From an uncultured bacterium (GTDB lineage Bacteria; Babelota; Babeliae; Babelales; Vermiphilaceae): a DNA stretch of 64,000 bases. The position numbers and the translations under genes were made by a program. The notes under the pieces are model-generated. The model searched no databases, had not been told where the DNA came from, and saw only the letters and a program-made list of their open reading frames with translations. Below, one piece after another: positions 11,903 to 56,092 of this stretch. Position 1 is the stretch's first letter. Every line of letters starts with the position of its first letter. The DNA lies in assembly GCA_963707655.1 (NCBI GenBank), contig OY970172.1, positions 608,001 to 672,000 of the forward strand, given 5' to 3'.

Positions 11903-12023
11903 TGGGTAAATAGGTTTTGCCACTTACCACCTCTGATTATTTTCAAGTTGAAAAAAATACATGAGCTGATATACTTATCATAAGTAACTTAATTAAATGG
12001 AGGTTATTATGAAAAACAAATTA
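11902..12023 (+). repeat. Duplicated promoter/RBS/leader block, copy 1 (copy 2 at ~12493-12615)
   Basis: Both copies read ATGGGTAAATAGGT...TTGAAA-16-TATACT...TAAGTA...AATGGAGG...ATGAAxAACAAATTA. Confidence 0.75.
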
Positions 12024-12492: not shown

Positions 12493-12615
12493 ATGGGTAA
12501 ATAGGTCGTGCTATGCCACTCTGCTTATTTCAAATTGAAAAAAATATGCGAATTGGTATACTTGCTATAAGTAGATTAATGATTAATGGAGGATCTAAAT
12601 ATGAATAACAAATTA
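12493..12615 (+). repeat. Duplicated promoter/RBS/leader block, copy 2
   Basis: See copy 1; TTGAAA at 12535, TATACT at 12557. Confidence 0.75.
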
Positions 12616-13830: not shown

Positions 13831-14781
13831 CTATAAGTATTCTTCTAACACCGTTAATTCTATTGGCTCCGGCTTTACACAATAACCGCCGGGCATAATG
13901 GGTGAGCCAAGAGAATTGGCAACATCATAATCATGTATGAATGATACGGGTGTTGCATATATTTGTGTATACCCCTGCGCTTTTAATTGTTCAAACGCAC
14001 GGTCAATATGCGTTCCGCCTGCCAGAGCAACTATTACCCCTTTATCCGCAGCATGGATTATGCTATGCACCAGGGCGCAATCAACCAAGCCGCTATCAAA
14101 GGTTAATAACTTCTTCAGCGTAAGCAATCGGTTACTGCGCTGAGTAATCTTTTCAAAATATGCAGCACTGCTCAATGCATTATGCTCTTGCAAACGCAAT
14201 GCATGCATGCTCTTTTTTACCTCAGCACAATTTTCTTTGTACCAACGATTGAGTGCTGATCCATCATCGTAGCTCAAGATTTTTTGCATCATCTGCTGCA
14301 CTTCATCAATCAATGAATAGATTCTAATAGCACACGCAGGTTGCGATATGTAAGAACTTTGGTCCAACTGGCGCAGCAAGCCCCCTAATGATATCACTCG
14401 ACAATATCGATACTCTATATTTTCTGCGTCAAGACCCAGCGCTATGCACTCTTTTGTTAAACTTGCCAAAATACCACGATTTGAATTGAGCCAAAATTGT
14501 TTGTGCCCATAACTACCACTATTATTCGGCGAGCTTAAGTCTTCTAAAATGATCTTCATTGATTGGTTTTGTTTAGCTAATAGATGAGTAATATAGGTTC
14601 TTTGGGCGCTATTTGCCTCGTGCATTTTATCATGAAAATCGCTACACCCTATAATAATTTTGTGCTCTTGCGCCGCCTCATCCCACGCGCGCAATATCTT
14701 TACTTCATAAATATAGCTCTTGATGGGAGACGAAAAGCAGAGAAAAATGCCACCACATAAGGCAAAAAATAGCTTTACCAC
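13831..14781 (-). CDS. Secreted hypothetical protein, paralog family A
   Basis: Signal peptide; SDFH, ILED, NIEYR, SYDDG..LNRWY, AGGTH. Confidence 0.75.
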   Translation of the reverse strand: MVKLFFALCGGIFLCFSSPIKSYIYEVKILRAWDEAAQEHKIIIGCSDFHDKMHEANSAQRTYITHLLAKQNQSMKIILEDLSSPNNSGSYGHKQFWLNSNRGILASLTKECIALGLDAENIEYRYCRVISLGGLLRQLDQSSYISQPACAIRIYSLIDEVQQMMQKILSYDDGSALNRWYKENCAEVKKSMHALRLQEHNALSSAAYFEKITQRSNRLLTLKKLLTFDSGLVDCALVHSIIHAADKGVIVALAGGTHIDRAFEQLKAQGYTQIYATPVSFIHDYDVANSLGSPIMPGGYCVKPEPIELTVLEEYL

Positions 14782-14940: not shown

Positions 14941-14991
14941 ATCCAGCCTTCGCTTATTCCGGGCATTCAGGCTCGGTAAGCTTCGGCGGAT
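14941..14991. repeat. Palindromic (REP/RPE-like) element, intergenic copy
   Basis: ATCCAGCCTTCGCTTATTCCGGGCATTCAGGCTCGGTAAGCTTCGGCGGAT; homologous to 36821-36870; folds into a long hairpin. Confidence 0.8.
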
Positions 14992-15268: not shown

Positions 15269-16855
15269 TTAAGCCTTATTATTCAACCTTTTTTTATCAA
15301 TTTTGCCCGTCGCCGTAAGCGGCAAAGATTCAGTAGTGCACACAAAAGAACGCGGTATTTTGTAGGGGGCCAAATTTTTTCTACACAACTCCTGTAGCTC
15401 TTGCTCTAAAGTGGGAGTTATTTCACGCACTTGTACATAGGCAACGGGAACTTGGCCAACCGCTTTATCTTCGCGCCCAATAACTGCCACACGTATCACT
15501 AAAGGGTGACTCATGATCACATTTTCAATCTCTTGGGGATAAATTTTTATTCCCTTGCTAGCAATAACATCTTTCAATCGCCCGGTAATAACTAAACGGT
15601 CCTGTTCGTCAAAATAGACCATATCACCGGTATTGAACCAGCCATCTCTCAATACCAATTCAGTTGCCTCCGGTGCATTATAATAGCCAAGCATAATATT
15701 ATCTCCCTTTACCCAGAGCTCTCCAATAGAACCGGCGGGTAATGGCTGGCCCTGCTCGTCTCTAACTTGAGCCTGAATGCCTACAACAAGGGGTCCCACG
15801 GTGGGCGCAGAAGCTGCTTCATCTTCCAGATGTGCTGATATTAAAGGAGAGGTCTCCGTTAATCCATAGCCACTACAAATCTTTCTGCGATAAACGAGCT
15901 CAAAACCGGCACAAATCTTGTCTTGCAATGCATCACCACCGGAAACAAAGTATTTGACCGAATCAAGTGGCGCATTTTTAAGCAAAACAAGCAAACCGTA
16001 TAATGCCGGAACACCCAAAAATATGGTTGGTTCATGGCGTAATCCTTCCAGCAAATAGCGGCGCTCAATACGCGGCACCACAATTACTGTTGAGCTGGTA
16101 AAAAATGCACCCCAAATGCACGCGAATTGTGCAAAGCTATGAAACAAGGGCAAAATACCGAGCAGGCGCTCACCCGGCAAAAGACCCAATTTTAAACGAG
16201 ATATACCTTGAATAACATTGGTTATCGCATTTTTCGAACTGATCATCACTCCTTTAGGAAAGCCAGTTGTTCCTGAAGTATAGAGCAGCGCAGCCATTTC
16301 ATCCGGCTCCAGATCGACAACTTCAAAAGAATCCGCTTCTTGTTCAGATGCCGCAGCGGGAAAATCTGTGAGCCTAATTAAAGGAAGATCAGAGGAATAA
16401 TTGTTGTCTTTCAGACGCGCATGCAACTCATCAGAAACAATCATAAGACGCGGTTGTGAATCGGCAATAATGTGCACAACTTCAGGCTCTGTTAAAAAAA
16501 CATTTAAAGGGGCAACCACCGCACCCAGTTGCGCAATGGCAAAATAAGCAACATAAAATTCAATTGAGTTTTCCCAAAAGAGCAGCACGCGATCTTTTTT
16601 CTGCACACCGCGCTCTTTTAAAAGCCTACTTAACGCCACTGAGCGCGCATAAAGATCATGATAGGAAATCGATTGACCCTTGTACACCAAAGCGATATGC
16701 GCTGGAGATAAAAATGCTGCTCGTTGCAATAAACGCCCAATAGAGAGCAACTTATTATTAAACAATGAAGCAGCATATAAAACATCAAACAACTGTTGCT
16801 CGGAAAGCCCCTCGTTAAGGACACTCGCATCGGGCATGGGAGGATATAGAGTCAT
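15269..16855 (-). CDS. fadD: Long-chain fatty acid-CoA ligase (AMP-binding)
   Basis: YTSGTTGFPKG, GYGLTE, WFNTGD, GKIDK. Confidence 0.88.
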   Translation of the reverse strand: MTLYPPMPDASVLNEGLSEQQLFDVLYAASLFNNKLLSIGRLLQRAAFLSPAHIALVYKGQSISYHDLYARSVALSRLLKERGVQKKDRVLLFWENSIEFYVAYFAIAQLGAVVAPLNVFLTEPEVVHIIADSQPRLMIVSDELHARLKDNNYSSDLPLIRLTDFPAAASEQEADSFEVVDLEPDEMAALLYTSGTTGFPKGVMISSKNAITNVIQGISRLKLGLLPGERLLGILPLFHSFAQFACIWGAFFTSSTVIVVPRIERRYLLEGLRHEPTIFLGVPALYGLLVLLKNAPLDSVKYFVSGGDALQDKICAGFELVYRRKICSGYGLTETSPLISAHLEDEAASAPTVGPLVVGIQAQVRDEQGQPLPAGSIGELWVKGDNIMLGYYNAPEATELVLRDGWFNTGDMVYFDEQDRLVITGRLKDVIASKGIKIYPQEIENVIMSHPLVIRVAVIGREDKAVGQVPVAYVQVREITPTLEQELQELCRKNLAPYKIPRSFVCTTESLPLTATGKIDKKRLNNKA

Positions 16856-35528: not shown

Positions 35529-35634
35529 ATCTCAAATCTCACTAATCCCCCAACAAGGAAAAATGGCTTCTCCCATCTTTAAAAAAACGGATGAAAACAT
35601 TCTCCTAATCGTTCATTTCGGCATTCCCCTCAAA

Positions 35635-35662
35635 TTGACAAATAGAAAGCTTTTGTTATACT
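35635..35662 (+). promoter_or_regulatory. Putative sigma70 promoter
   Basis: TTGACA-16 bp-TATACT. Confidence 0.6.
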
Positions 35663-35724
35663 TATAATAAGTAAAAAACAGAGATTAAATGGGCTTTTAC
35701 CCATTACAATCAATGGAGGCTTTT

Positions 35725-36792
35725 ATGAATACAATTAAAAAATTATCCCTTTTTGCCCTTACCCTTTTTTCATTCGCCCAAGGTCACATATTTGAAGCTG
35801 AAAAATGGGTAAATCAATCAAATCAAACTGTTTCCCTTTTTGGTGATTACCACGTTGCTGAAAATGAAGAAAACCAAGTGAATGATGTACAACAAGCCGC
35901 TCTTATTGATATCGCAAAAAATTTGAATGCTACCATCATCGTAGAAGATGGTTATTCAAATGGGGCAGAATTAAAACAAGATCCGCTTAATTATGATTAT
36001 AATAAATACCGCAAATTCGAAGTGGATAATCCACACGAGATAACTTTGTTGGCAGGATTTACCGGTCGCTGTAAAGAAGAGGGTGTCAAAGTTAACAACA
36101 TTGAATTCCGTTTTCCCCCTTTAGCAACATCGGCACACATGATCATGGCAAAGATAGAGCAAATAAAACAAAAAATAACAACCTATAATGACAACGCATT
36201 GAATGATTATTATAAACGCAAGCTGGAAGAATTACGCACAGAAGTAGAAATACCTTGCGCATCATTACTCAATGAACTTAAAAATTCTTATGCCAATTTA
36301 GAAGAATCATGTCATAAAATTCATTATAAAAAAGAATATGACCAGGCATTGTACCATTTATGGGGCCACGCCGCATTCGCTGACATGTATGATAAAGTTA
36401 ACCATATTATTATCGGTTATGAAGCGCGTCTTGTTGATCTTGAAATCTTACATGCGATTGCGCAACAAAACAGCCACGCAATTATTTGCGCCGGTGCCGG
36501 CCACTTAAACCGTATCAAACCGGCATTGAAAGAAATTGGTTTTGCGAGTGTAAAGAGCATGGGCGAACAACATATAGGAAACGCTCCTGAACCGCGCGCA
36601 TTGAATATTACTCAAACAGTTGATGCTTTTTATAGTGCTGATGAAATGGCTACGGCCCAACAGCAGGCCAACGCGTTAAAATATTTCACCCCTATAGCTC
36701 TAGTGCTTTGTGTGCTGTTAGTTATAGCCACGCTCGGTGCATTGGTAGTAGTCAGACACGCGCGCACGCGAACACAAATACAATCATTGTAA
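35725..36792 (+). CDS. Secreted, C-terminally anchored protein, paralog family A (tandem duplicate)
   Basis: HIFEAEKWV, GDYHVAENEENQVND, CAGAGH; close paralog of 34449. Confidence 0.8.
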   Translation: MNTIKKLSLFALTLFSFAQGHIFEAEKWVNQSNQTVSLFGDYHVAENEENQVNDVQQAALIDIAKNLNATIIVEDGYSNGAELKQDPLNYDYNKYRKFEVDNPHEITLLAGFTGRCKEEGVKVNNIEFRFPPLATSAHMIMAKIEQIKQKITTYNDNALNDYYKRKLEELRTEVEIPCASLLNELKNSYANLEESCHKIHYKKEYDQALYHLWGHAAFADMYDKVNHIIIGYEARLVDLEILHAIAQQNSHAIICAGAGHLNRIKPALKEIGFASVKSMGEQHIGNAPEPRALNITQTVDAFYSADEMATAQQQANALKYFTPIALVLCVLLVIATLGALVVVRHARTRTQIQSL

Positions 36793-36805
36793 TTAAGGAA
36801 AAACC

Positions 36806-37798
36806 ATGAACTTTAAATCAATCCAGCCGACGCTTATCCGGGCCTTCAGGCTCGGCAAGCTATGGCGGACAAAAATAATCGCCGCTTTATTGCTCGCAAC
36901 GACAGCAGCAACAGTTCACGGCAGTGAATTAATTAAGCCAACCAGCGGATTATGCCTCAATGGCTGGTACAATAAATTAACGAGCACAAAGACTGATGTT
37001 GATAATTTTTTCGAGAAAAAATATACCCCCTATTTGGGCGGCATGGTTTCATGGGAAAGTGACGAACTCAAAGAGTTCCAGCTCAGCGTAAAAGAACCCA
37101 AGAAATGGGCCGGTCATGTGCTCAAATACCTTAATGATAGTGCAGGTTCAAAAGATTCGCAGAAGCCCACAGAGCTCAAAGAGCTTAATTTTGCCAGCGG
37201 CGCAACGCGAAATATTAACGTGCCCGATACTAGACCTTCTCTGTTAAGCAGAGCAGCCAATTATATGTTCTCAACGATCAAATCAGATTTAGGCTATGGC
37301 CCGCGATCTTTTAAGCAGTCAGGCTGGCTTATGCATGGAGTAAAGCAAGTTGCAACAGCTGCACGACTTTTGGCGTACAAACGAGCTATTAATGCAATTT
37401 TTATATCCGCCTTAGCAACATCCGGCTACGGAAATGTCATAACTGAAAACTTAAATAAAACATCACAATTTAAGCCAATGTCATTAGCGCTCTTGGTTAC
37501 GGCGGCAGTCCTTATCTCTCCGCCACTGGAGGAAGGGATATTTACGCATGCCACAGCACCAATGCTGTCGTATGTGGGTGGAGAACGCCTTGGAAGAATA
37601 ATAACTCCCCTGCTATTTGGAGCGATGCATTATCATGAGAATCCAATCAGGTGGGCATTCCACGTAGCACAGTTGGCGCCCTTATCTTATCTCAATATTT
37701 CACACCTGCAGCAAAATCCTGACAATATTTTGGTACCCACATTGCACCACATGATGCATAATGCTTTAGCGATGTGGCAGATCTACGGAAATAAGTAA
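36806..37798 (+). CDS. CPBP/Abi (CAAX protease-like) intramembrane metalloprotease domain protein
   Basis: PPLEEGIF, LLFGAMH, HHMMHN motifs in the C-terminal region. Confidence 0.75.
   Translation: MNFKSIQPTLIRAFRLGKLWRTKIIAALLLATTAATVHGSELIKPTSGLCLNGWYNKLTSTKTDVDNFFEKKYTPYLGGMVSWESDELKEFQLSVKEPKKWAGHVLKYLNDSAGSKDSQKPTELKELNFASGATRNINVPDTRPSLLSRAANYMFSTIKSDLGYGPRSFKQSGWLMHGVKQVATAARLLAYKRAINAIFISALATSGYGNVITENLNKTSQFKPMSLALLVTAAVLISPPLEEGIFTHATAPMLSYVGGERLGRIITPLLFGAMHYHENPIRWAFHVAQLAPLSYLNISHLQQNPDNILVPTLHHMMHNALAMWQIYGNK
36821..36870. repeat. Palindromic element, in-frame copy within a CDS
   Basis: ATCCAGCCGACGCTTATCCGGGCCTTCAGGCTCGGCAAGCTATGGCGGAC; homologous to 14941-14991. Confidence 0.8.
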
Positions 37799-37986: not shown

Positions 37987-38778
37987 ATGAATTCAAAAAC
38001 TATCACCGCTTTCTTTCTCGCAATAACTGCAGCGACTGCCCGTGGCAGCGAACTAGCCAACGAAAAACTTTCTGCGATTGAACAAAAGTGGATGAATTGG
38101 GCAAATGCACGCGTTGAAGAGGAAAAAGATACATTTTTATCTCTCTACAATCTCAATCGCTCCCATTTAAACAATCAAGAAGCCATCATGGGCATAAGAA
38201 GTTCTCTCGACCAAATGATTGAAGATATGATTAACGCTTACGATACAGAAGAAAAATCAGCCATAAAAACAGAAGTCGAAACAATACAAAAAATTGCCAA
38301 TGCAATTTTTATTGGACCTCAGTGTGCGTGTGTGAAAATTTTATCCGATGATACGTTTGAATATGGGGATGTAGCAACAATGCAGCATTACTCACAGAAA
38401 GAATGCTACGTCGTATTAAACGCCTCAAAACACAGCGATAATATGGCTGAACTTGAAGCAATATTGCGGCATGAGTACAGCCATATTGTACATGAAGATA
38501 ATTTCCATCATGAGATGCTACGATGTGCTGCATGGGTCAACTCACAAGATGCGCATGAAGAGGTAGCAGAAAAAAGCGCTTCTTTCCATCAGGCTTATGA
38601 AATAAGAGCCGACGTGTATGCTGTAATGAATTCAGCTGATCATGGCAATGGTTTGATTGCTTCTTTAAAGAAAATTGCTGAAGAAGAAGAGCAAACTCAT
38701 CCTAAAACAAACGAGCGTATTGCCTTATTAGAAAAAATTAAATCAGAATGCGCCGCGGCACAAGAAACATCGCTATAA
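37987..38778 (+). CDS. Secreted M48-like zinc metalloprotease
   Basis: ILRHEYSH, EIRAD, THPKTNERI. Confidence 0.8.
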   Translation: MNSKTITAFFLAITAATARGSELANEKLSAIEQKWMNWANARVEEEKDTFLSLYNLNRSHLNNQEAIMGIRSSLDQMIEDMINAYDTEEKSAIKTEVETIQKIANAIFIGPQCACVKILSDDTFEYGDVATMQHYSQKECYVVLNASKHSDNMAELEAILRHEYSHIVHEDNFHHEMLRCAAWVNSQDAHEEVAEKSASFHQAYEIRADVYAVMNSADHGNGLIASLKKIAEEEEQTHPKTNERIALLEKIKSECAAAQETSL

Positions 38779-41481: not shown

Positions 41482-43464
41482 TCACTCCATTGACTCATCA
41501 TCAATGATTTCATCATCTTCAGGAGATACCAAATCTTCAAATTCTTTTTCAAAGAATGTGCGTAATTTTTTGCTGCGTGATGGATGGCGCAGTTTTCGTA
41601 GTGCTTTTACTTCGATTTGACGGATACGTTCACGAGTTACAGAAAAATCTTTACCAACTTCTTCAAGAGTATGCTCAGAAGCGACATCGATACCAAAGCG
41701 CATTTTAAGTACTTTTTCTTCACGTGGCGTAAGTGTTTTGAGTACTTCTCGCACTCGTTCTTTTAAATCATTGTTTGCAACCGTATCGGATGGAGAAAAC
41801 TCATTTTCATTTTCAATAAAATCTTTAATGAATGCATCTTCACTATCACCAACGGGAGTTTCAAGAGAAATTGGTTCTTTTGAAATCTTGATAATATTTT
41901 TGATTTTCTTTTCATCAAGATTCAGTTCTTTTGCCAATTCAGCATAGCTTGGTTCGCGGCCATGTTCTTGAATAAAGGTGCGTTTGATTTTGTTAATTTT
42001 GTTGAGCGTTTCAACCATATGAACCGGAACACGAATAGTACGTGATTGATCAGCAATTGCACGAGTAATTGCTTGGCGAATCCACCAGGTTGCATAGGTT
42101 GAAAATTTATAGCCACGCTCAAATTCAAATTTTTCAACTGCTTTCATTAAACCGATATTACCTTCTTGAATCAAATCAAGAAAGTGTAATCCGCGATTGA
42201 CATATTTTTTGGCAATATTAACCACCAAGACGTAAGTTTGCATTTGCAAGATCATCTTTTGCACGTTTATCTTTTACTTGAGCTCGTCATAAGAATTGAT
42301 GTAATAATGTTTAAATATTACTGTTTGTGGCAATACCGACTTCAACTTCAATCTTTTTAATCGCTTTTGACTGCGCTACGCATATTGCGCTCAATTTCTT
42401 CCATCTGTTCGCGCTGATCTTCAGTCGGTTCAATAATGGCTTGATAAGCTTCGAGCTGATCTTGGCTAGAATTTAATGAGTTGCTTCTTTTTCTTTAATT
42501 TTCTTCATGATATTTTTCAATTTTCTTGCCCATTTTGCTAATAAGCTTATTAGAAATTTTAATTGAGCGAATAGTTTCACCAATTTTTTCTTTATTTTCT
42601 TTCACCTCTTCAAGCATCTCTCTTTTTTTCTTATCAGAATCAAGCTTGCCACGATAACTTAAATAAATCTTTTCTTCATTATCAATCAAATCTTTAATTG
42701 TTTTAATAGTGCTGAGAAGTGCTTTTTTTTCTTCTTCAATATTTAGGAAGATTTTCTTCATCAAATTCAGAAAATTGAATAATATCTTTTAATGGGAGGC
42801 TGTTTTCTTGTAATTTTTCCCCAATGTAGCAAATTCTTTATGAATGAACGGGAAAGCGAGAAATAGCATCGATAGATTCTTTTTTGCTCAGAGCAATTTG
42901 ATCAGCAATAACCGTTTCTGTTTTTTTATTTAGGAGAGGAATTTTACCAATATCGCGCAAATAACATTTGACCGGATCGGTAATCTGTGAAGCTCCTGCT
43001 TCCCGAACCACTTCGCGCTCATCATCTTCGTCTTCTTCTCCACCTTCTTCTTCATCTTCATACTGATCGCCTGAGCTATCTAGCGAGCCATCTAAATGAG
43101 ATTTGATATTGGTGCGACCAACCTCTTCTTCTTCTTGAAAGTCATCAAGAGAGTTTTGTGTTTTATCAAATTCTTCTTGAGTAATCAGGTCAACGTGCTC
43201 TTTTTCAAAGGTTTTGAGCATATCATTGGTTTCAGCCTCTGTAAGCTGATGCTTATCACCAAATTCTATAAGCTCTTCATAGGTTAAAACATCTGCCTGT
43301 TTACTTTTTTCAACAAACTCTTCAATTATTTCTTTTTTTAAATCAATACCGGTTTCTTTTGCTTTTTTGCTGCCAGCATTAATTTTTTTGCTCTCACCTT
43401 CAGGGAGCTCTTCTTTGATAAGTTTATTTTTTATTGTTTTTACGGCGGATAGAATTTTTTTCAT
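41482..43464 (-). CDS. rpoD: Primary sigma factor RpoD, broken by several frameshifts in this sequence
   Basis: Fragments with region 1.2 [11 protein letters not shown], region 2 VVNIAKKY...[17 protein letters not shown]...[12 protein letters not shown], region 4 TRERIRQIE; follows dnaG. Confidence 0.93.
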
Positions 43465-55830: not shown

Positions 55831-56037
55831 ATGATTAGAATTAATAATCTTTTTATTTTATCTCTATTACTCACCACAAGCGCACTGCATAGCATGGATG
55901 CATCGAATAACGATCTCGGAGCCCGGAGGGTGGTCATACTTAAACAACTATTATTACAAGTATCTTTAATGTCAAATGACAGTAAGAAGTGTTATGATCG
56001 AATAACCATCCTGGAAAAAACCTATGAACAAAATTAA
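55831..56037 (+). CDS. Short secreted orphan or gene remnant
   Basis: Signal peptide nearly identical to that of the next gene. Confidence 0.5.
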   Translation: MIRINNLFILSLLLTTSALHSMDASNNDLGARRVVILKQLLLQVSLMSNDSKKCYDRITILEKTYEQN

Positions 56038-56092
56038 TAACATCTTTATTTTATCTCTATTACTCACCACAAGCGCACTGCATAGCATGGAT
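55852..56092 (+). repeat. 48-bp perfect direct repeat (55852-55899 and 56045-56092) encoding a signal peptide
   Basis: TTTATTTTATCTCTATTACTCACCACAAGCGCACTGCATAGCATGGAT occurs twice. Confidence 0.92.

Follow-up and report, generated by a model that had tools for sequence, protein, structure and literature searches.

The palindromic segment within ORF 36806 of the window (the whole stretch of 64,000 nt that was analyzed) is a stray copy of a real repeat family, a bulged hairpin whose usual home is the 3′ ends of tRNA and tmRNA genes. Across the phylum, one repeat, one fixed target (the tRNA CCA) and one candidate enzyme of 80 residues co-occur, and consequently the spread of palindromes into coding sequence becomes testable. 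This bears on the wider problem of how palindromes without a transposase, such as the RPEs and the CGTC REPs, spread and come to lie in genes; in the sections of PMC3733652 that deal with them, the CGTC REPs were concluded to have no dedicated transposase. No description of the tRNA-end hairpin family or of its cassette was found in the published literature searched, which excluded most subscription journals, and the supplements of PMC11893778 and PMC3733652 could list such repeats.

The insertion in ORF 36806

The window lies in a genome of 1.09 Mb (G000), for which a relative of the same genus (G001) served as the closest comparison. An earlier reading made from the sequence alone (hereafter the sequence-only reading) had held that the palindrome in ORF 36806 is homologous to an intergenic one, that the pairing arms of the two are conserved and that most of their differences are unpaired, and all of this was borne out, with the boundaries now exact (Table 1). 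The two copies are 88% identical over 43 nt (E 1.9e-4, blastn against the 1.09-Mb genome), and six of their seven differences lie where the family structure is unpaired, the seventh being at the loop-closing pair (alignment A3). Both are of the reverse-partner type, with an outer stem TCC/GGA and a bulged A. As DNA, the + strand of 36819-36873 has a folding energy of −13 kcal/mol (z −3.2; 0/200 shuffles were equally stable), and the + strand of this hairpin folds better than its − strand. A search of Rfam over 36700-37000 gave no match up to E 5. For the intergenic copy, no hairpin was seen upstream of the G001 ortholog of the gene at 13831-14781, where the spacer differs.

Table 1. Positions of the hairpin copies and associated features in the window.
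Feature	Position	Strand	Remarks
Bulged hairpin TCC...GGA, 48 nt	36822..36869	+	Solo copy of the tRNA-end hairpin family; in frame, codes part of QPTLIRAFRLGKLWRT
Segment missing from the G001 ortholog, 54 nt = 18 codons	36822..36875	+	Boundary uncertain by ≤3 nt
CAA belonging to the host, shared with the ortholog	36819..36821	+	Occurs again at 36870-36872, possibly as a 3-nt target duplication
Second solo copy, intergenic, 49 nt	14942..14990	+	Sequence, fold, nhmmer
Host gene, 330 aa, signal peptide and C-terminal Rce1-like (CAAX protease) domain	36806..37798	+	PF02517, E 2.9e-7
Shine-Dalgarno-like AAGGA, 6 nt ahead of ATG 36806	36795..36799	+	Sequence
Signal-peptide hydrophobic core, codons 24-33, intact behind the insert	36875..36904	+	Hydropathy reaches 3.4 over 7 residues
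Leader of the following gene (a Peptidase M48), similar but not an ortholog	37987..38055	+	Domain search
Acyl-CoA ligase-like gene, empty here	15269..16855	−	G001 ortholog 72% identical, with the hairpin inside a 30-codon in-frame insert

Comparison with the ortholog confirmed that the element is a real in-frame insertion of 51-54 nt (17-18 codons), its direction being set by G001 as the one ortholog. The G001 protein (313 aa, 43% identical) has the same MNFKSI start and then enters its hydrophobic core at once. At the DNA level it reads AAATCAATAAT, for which the window counterpart is AAATCAA at 36815-36821 plus TAAT at 36876-36879, leaving 54 nt extra in the window. If the insert is instead defined by the hairpin's own ends (TCC/GGA, 48 nt) and the CAA at each side, it comprises 51 nt, or 17 codons, and the reading frame is kept either way. 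The sequence-only reading had recognized the extra segment correctly but gave it 19 codons, a size taken from the leader of gene 37987 as a proxy for the empty site. That leader is indeed similar; it can be only a rough proxy, since a Peptidase M48 gene is not a paralog of one with an Rce1-like domain. The insert matches a copy in another genus (L103) at 47 of 50 nt, while the host proteins are 43% identical, and because the element is so much closer to that copy than the host genes are to each other we consider the insertion to be young. Among ten sequencing runs, contigs of four were compared with the site; those from other organisms match no more than 36815/36834-36858/36872 and have loose ends, and no contig spans the insertion site, so that an empty allele of the same species was not seen among them.

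The ORF is open from ATG 36806 across the element to 37798. An ortholog was present in one of 40 relatives (G001), and a profile search with the host protein returned one full-length ortholog, the only one to cover the N-terminus, and 20 partial matches. A protein search with it gave no match but itself, and of 155 candidates from a metagenome scan for related loci, not one was confirmed. The insert contributes five basic residues before the hydrophobic core. Signal-peptide n-regions tolerate extra length and positive charge, so the inserted peptide is probably tolerated and discarded: it would lengthen the n-region and probably be cleaved off with the signal peptide, whose probable cleavage site matches that of the ortholog. 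We infer that the leader is translated and cleaved in this manner. The proposal that the palindrome creates new protein sequence is weak at 36806 itself, as the peptide precedes the core and would be removed with the signal peptide. On its own, the lone insertion in this signal peptide is a minor event and probably neutral.

Several features elsewhere in the window were noted in passing. Downstream in ORF 36806, at 36923-37060, is a short N-terminal domain (KPSGxCLNxWxNxL) that it has in common with unrelated secreted proteins of ~580 aa (L003; P0017) and that other Rce1-like homologs do not have, pointing to shuffling of leaders and domains. Three similar promoter-like segments of 53 nt (family D4) lie upstream of genes at 11941-11993, 12528-12580, and 35628-35680, and a leader-coding segment of 69 nt (family D7) is repeated at 55831-55899 and 56024-56092, with 91% identity and 193 nt apart. 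An rpoD-like gene at 41482-43464 (− strand) appears to be split between two frames, 42838-43464 and 41482-42264, perhaps through a frameshift or an assembly error.

A hairpin family at the 3′ ends of tRNA genes

The dispersed family proposed from the two window copies proved to be far larger, with 14 copies in G000 at E<0.001 by nhmmer (best E in the reversed-genome control, 2.4) and 17 by a covariance model; the copy in ORF 36806 is the only one in G000 within a real gene. Covariation supports the hairpin structure: in an alignment of 12 copies (11 from G000), two-sided changes occur in 7 of 15 pairs, a level that 0/500 shuffles reach and that kinship among the copies can inflate, and sliding the structure along the same alignment lowers the paired share to 12-51%. 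The covariance model matches 21 of 41 genomes searched. An exact degenerate pattern found 54 loci among 185,579 species genomes, the named taxa being Dependentiae/Babeliales save for four MAGs titled Pseudomonadota, and none of them Rickettsia; this points to Dependentiae as the origin of the window.

What the sequence-only reading overlooked is the main site of the family, the tRNA CCA end. Among 38 tRNA genes in G000 (ARAGORN), 20 have CTDYG exactly 2 nt after the CCA (CCA-NN-CTDYG), and at every other offset from 0 to 7 the motif occurs in no more than one tRNA each; the background after any CCA in G000 is 146/31,154. A scan with the CCA-anchored pattern gave 23 matches vs 2 in the reversed genome. 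(A structure-pattern scan without the CCA anchor was dropped as unspecific, with 23 matches vs 28 in the reversed genome.) Nineteen of the tRNA hairpins have a partner arm; in these, the variable NN is complementary to that arm at 33 of 38 positions (17.4 when shuffled), and the arm ends in TGG facing the CCA of the tRNA. Within the phylum, 129 of 201 genomes have the tRNA-hairpin junction, as compared to 0 in the reversed control.

A set of 148 distinct copies, combined from the best model matches, pattern matches and 60 regions picked from five genomes and thus not random, contains 68 that adjoin a tRNA end, 5 at a tmRNA end, 16 reverse-oriented partners of the tRNA-end hairpin, which form inverted dimers and mosaics with nested forms among them, 4 otherwise near a tRNA, and 55 solos. 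A Shine-Dalgarno sequence and ATG follow directly in 6 of 52 solo copies. In 37 solos there was no excess of target duplications or flanking direct repeats (mean 1.97 vs 1.81 shuffled, p 0.23). Pairing between the flanks of solos exceeds that of shuffled sequence only at the first 1-2 flanking positions, which argues against a long templated fold-back as the general rule.

Two arrangements at tRNA-Arg deserve separate mention. At G000:324168-324270 and at L208 a hairpin is inserted after GTAGCT in a 5′ fragment of tRNA-Arg, upstream of an intact tRNA-Arg, and the layout in G001 is the same. At G000:996006-1016800 (L062) and G000:315540-318043 (L018), a serine-recombinase island at tRNA-Arg(tct) is followed by a tandem array of genes of ~630 aa that have a common N-terminus and swapped C-termini (one a Colicin D domain), with a small gene after each, resembling polymorphic toxin-immunity cassettes. 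Every such cassette opens with a duplicated 3′ end of tRNA-Arg and the hairpin.

Insertions in other genes

That the element enters genes in frame, as had been proposed, is evident both from the same-genus ortholog without the segment and from genes of relatives that are also affected. Ten further solos lie within long open frames of relatives, eight of them sense and two antisense (L213 and L126), in at least four different frames; with several reading frames and both strands in use, the hairpin does not yield a single conserved peptide. In TruB there is a gap of 16-17 residues against solved TruB proteins at the hairpin insert. Against homologs in G000 the gaps are 30 for the acyl-CoA ligase (L213), 19 for a replication-like protein (L177), 19 for a C-terminal case, and 17 for one behind a signal peptide (the last two being L197 and L217). 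Three others (L192, L199, and L200) align to their G000 homologs without a clean gap and two (L126 and L232) have no usable comparator, so that these five are in frame on the evidence of the open frame only; among them are what we take, by recognition from sequence, to be an alanine-symporter-like gene, pheT and mutL.

Within the acyl-CoA ligase insert (L213, G001:C52:7000-8300), ~12 nt of neighboring host sequence recur in inverted orientation, which is suggestive of template switching. G000 itself has two copies of the replication-like gene (226244-227005 and 246922-247698), and it is the homolog of these in a relative (L177) that has the hairpin in frame.

A linked gene for a small GIY-YIG protein

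The sequence-only reading had advised looking for an associated RAYT/TnpA or nuclease gene. A nuclease gene is associated with the hairpin; a search of G000 (88.6% complete) for Y1_Tnp/RAYT/TnpA (PF01797) gave 0 matches. Directly behind a hairpin pair at G000:315763 is a small GIY-YIG gene whose protein conserves the GIY-YIG tyrosines, Arg, His, and Glu. It has no stop at the usual place and continues for 25 codons into a hairpin remnant. We collected 67 loci of small GIY-YIG proteins from 134 PF01541 matches in 41 genomes (best-scoring short frames), which form three groups in a quick tree, the group that includes the G000 gene (clade C; sole member in G000) having an SH-aLRT of 99. Clade-C proteins are ~80 aa in length with a single domain (model pLDDT 96), nearest by sequence and fold to the catalytic domains of SLX1/HIGLE (TM 0.76-0.78), and NCBIfam gave no specific family for the small GIY-YIG proteins.

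A tRNA or tmRNA gene lies ≤600 nt upstream of 28 of 38 clade-C genes and of 0/30 other small GIY-YIG entries, and CCA-NN-CTWYG is upstream of 24/38 vs 2/30. Where the tRNA or tmRNA is ≤400 nt away (25 clade-C genes), 17 show the strict motif, the other 8 having a variant hairpin. The order in the cassette does not vary: CCA, hairpin, a TGGC-N3-GCCA mini-hairpin, an A/T-rich spacer, a stretch perfectly complementary to the first arm, a reverse hairpin, and then the GIY-YIG gene. In the phylum, 122 of 201 genomes have a clade-C gene; gene and junction occur together in 107, neither in 57, the gene only in 15 and the junction only in 22, giving an odds ratio of 18 in which related genomes are not independent and which is partly circular, as the cassette itself includes a junction.

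Three small GIY-YIG clades in Babeliales (L009-L035, L063-L102) each have their own palindrome type. Besides clade C, one has flanking inverted repeats of the CGTTCGTCCTGAGC type, which match neither the SRM nor the tRNA-end family, and the other has NTS/SRM-like ones.

How the hairpin may spread

We lean, by a modest degree, toward the interpretation that the hairpin is non-autonomous and is spread by the clade-C GIY-YIG nuclease, in the manner of Ssn and its NTS repeats (see below) with another clade and another motif. The unit would be the cassette of tRNA-CCA, a first hairpin whose base pairing extends to the CCA, an A/T-rich spacer, a second, reverse hairpin (the type in the window), and the gene for the ~80-aa SLX1-like GIY-YIG protein. 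The nuclease would recognize the bulged hairpin in single-stranded DNA and nick beside it or at tRNA ends, and repair through recombination or template switching would then copy the hairpin to new sites. Most copies without the gene would remain at tRNA ends and a minority would land elsewhere, those that survive being the ones that keep the frame in tolerant places such as signal n-regions, loops, and termini. We infer the activity of the nuclease, its target, and the copying step. Against this reading, 22 of the 201 genomes have the junction without the gene, the solos show no excess of target duplications that would define the copying step, the G000 gene runs past its usual stop, a nuclease is not a transposase, and Chenal et al. 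(PMC11893778), in their discussion of the matter, only hypothesize that Ssn spreads its repeats.

A broader proposal, which we would sooner doubt than assert, is that these are an undescribed class of mobile element, with an SLX1-like nuclease of 80 residues and no transposase, which uses the universal CCA of tRNAs as a safe landing site through hairpin pairing and whose gene-less 48-nt hairpins are moved in trans, protein genes included. If true, this would give coding palindromes a first candidate class of enzymes and add to Ssn a second family of ssDNA nucleases addressed by hairpins.

It is unlikely, though a reading to be taken seriously, that the hairpins are instead RNA elements (a pre-tRNA trailer, an attenuator, or a switch over read-through into the nuclease gene) and that the solos were spread by host recombination or template switching with no dedicated enzyme. 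The 5′ arm has two possible partners, namely its own 3′ arm and, 60-90 nt downstream, a perfect complement that covaries with it; the hairpin would sequester the CCA in the precursor, and the better folding of the + strand, as well as the solos placed just ahead of a Shine-Dalgarno and ATG, are what an RNA element would lead one to expect. However, the second hairpin has the opposite direction, solos lie antisense in genes (L213, L126), 18 of 38 tRNAs and 72 of 201 genomes are without the hairpin, Rfam has no match, and the discrete insertions of 48-54 nt in unrelated genes are left unexplained.

Somewhat less likely still is that another enzyme moves the hairpin, either an island integrase aimed at tRNA ends or a RAYT/TnpA since lost, with the GIY-YIG gene a passenger. 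The serine-recombinase island at tRNA-Arg(tct), behind which the cassettes are delimited by duplicates of the tRNA 3′ end with hairpins, lends itself to this explanation, as does a tyrosine-recombinase gene in the same island. Yet site-specific integrases do not serve 20 different tRNAs, the hairpin is in the examined flanks of 0/4 tyrosine-recombinase loci, the island appears to have displaced an earlier hairpin, and G000, at 88.6% completeness, has no Y1_Tnp.

The remaining alternatives concern ORF 36806 alone. We think it very unlikely that the region around the element is untranslated or dead, with the true start downstream or the gene silenced by the hairpin. In the mRNA a hairpin of −24.6 kcal/mol starts 16 nt past the ATG and may lower translation, and Di Nocera et al. 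cautioned, in their remarks on N-terminal REPs, that many of these may be extragenic; however, the initiation region stays open in the centroid fold, the ortholog shares the MNFKSI start, the Shine-Dalgarno is good, the frame of 330 codons is intact, and the sole standard downstream start within the leader is the TTG of codon 28, inside the hydrophobic core. It is extremely improbable that the segment is an ancestral leader lost by the G001 ortholog, the one ortholog covering the N-terminus, given the near-identity of the segment with tRNA-end copies in other genera and the short ordinary leaders of the more distant homologs P0003-P0006 and of neighbor 37987. The outcomes that the sequence-only reading had named as counting against an insertion (no further copies, a segment ancestral in all orthologs, a start downstream of the element) did not arise.

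Comparison with known systems

The palindrome, which the sequence-only reading had termed RPE-like, is not itself an RPE, as length, motif, and host all differ. There are likenesses, in that RPEs as described in the relevant parts of PMC10969869 and PMC3733652 are palindromes that sit in frame within genes unrelated to one another, in an intracellular bacterium with a reduced genome, and truB is affected in both cases. However, RPEs are given there as ~150 bp vs 48-54 nt here, and it is by such description that we set them apart; the Dependentiae hairpin also has no terminal CGTC tag (a feature ascribed to RPE-4/6), its home site is at tRNA ends, and a candidate enzyme is present. The GTAG REPs and BIMEs associated with RAYT, according to the account of them in PMC3733652, are likewise palindromes of small size that frequently form inverted pairs and mosaics and in some cases lie within genes. 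In contrast, the hairpin here has no unpaired terminal GTAG, GTAG-like letters occurring only inside bulges of the reverse strand (alignment A3), and the Y1 transposase of a RAYT-REP system was not found in G000 (88.6% complete). As for a MITE, the CAA is repeated at the 36806 site, yet the 37 solos show no excess of such repeats and the element ends only in TCC/GGA.

Phage T4 SegB offers a precedent of another kind, being described in PMC2330249 as a free-standing, self-spreading GIY-YIG gene among tRNA genes. Unlike the present case, SegB belongs to phages and cuts dsDNA at a 27-bp site with a T-psi-C motif, and no hairpin repeat figures in the abstract of PMC2330249. The gene here is chromosomal, with a product of ~80 aa and an SLX1-like fold, and the likeness rests on its position behind tRNA genes.

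The closest parallel is with the Ssn proteins, GIY-YIG enzymes that, as reported in the pertinent text of Chenal et al. (2025; PMC11893778), cleave ssDNA adjacent to hairpin repeats of their own (NTS/SRM) and for which a mobile origin is there only hypothesized. In both systems a small single-domain GIY-YIG gene is tied to a dispersed hairpin repeat, host-associated bacteria are enriched, and a domesticated mobile unit has been proposed. They differ in that the SRM pattern misses the present element (its one match in G000 is unrelated) and occurs in 0/38 clade-C flanks; it was found in three entries of another GIY-YIG clade, which SRM/CGTC-type repeats flank in the same genomes. Moreover, the Dependentiae hairpins are mostly upstream only and anchored at the tRNA CCA, whereas the word tRNA is absent from the main text of PMC11893778. 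Membership of clade C in cd10448/SsnA is argued against by its separation from the SRM-flanked clade (in a tree without SsnA) and by its being closest to SLX1 among solved structures.
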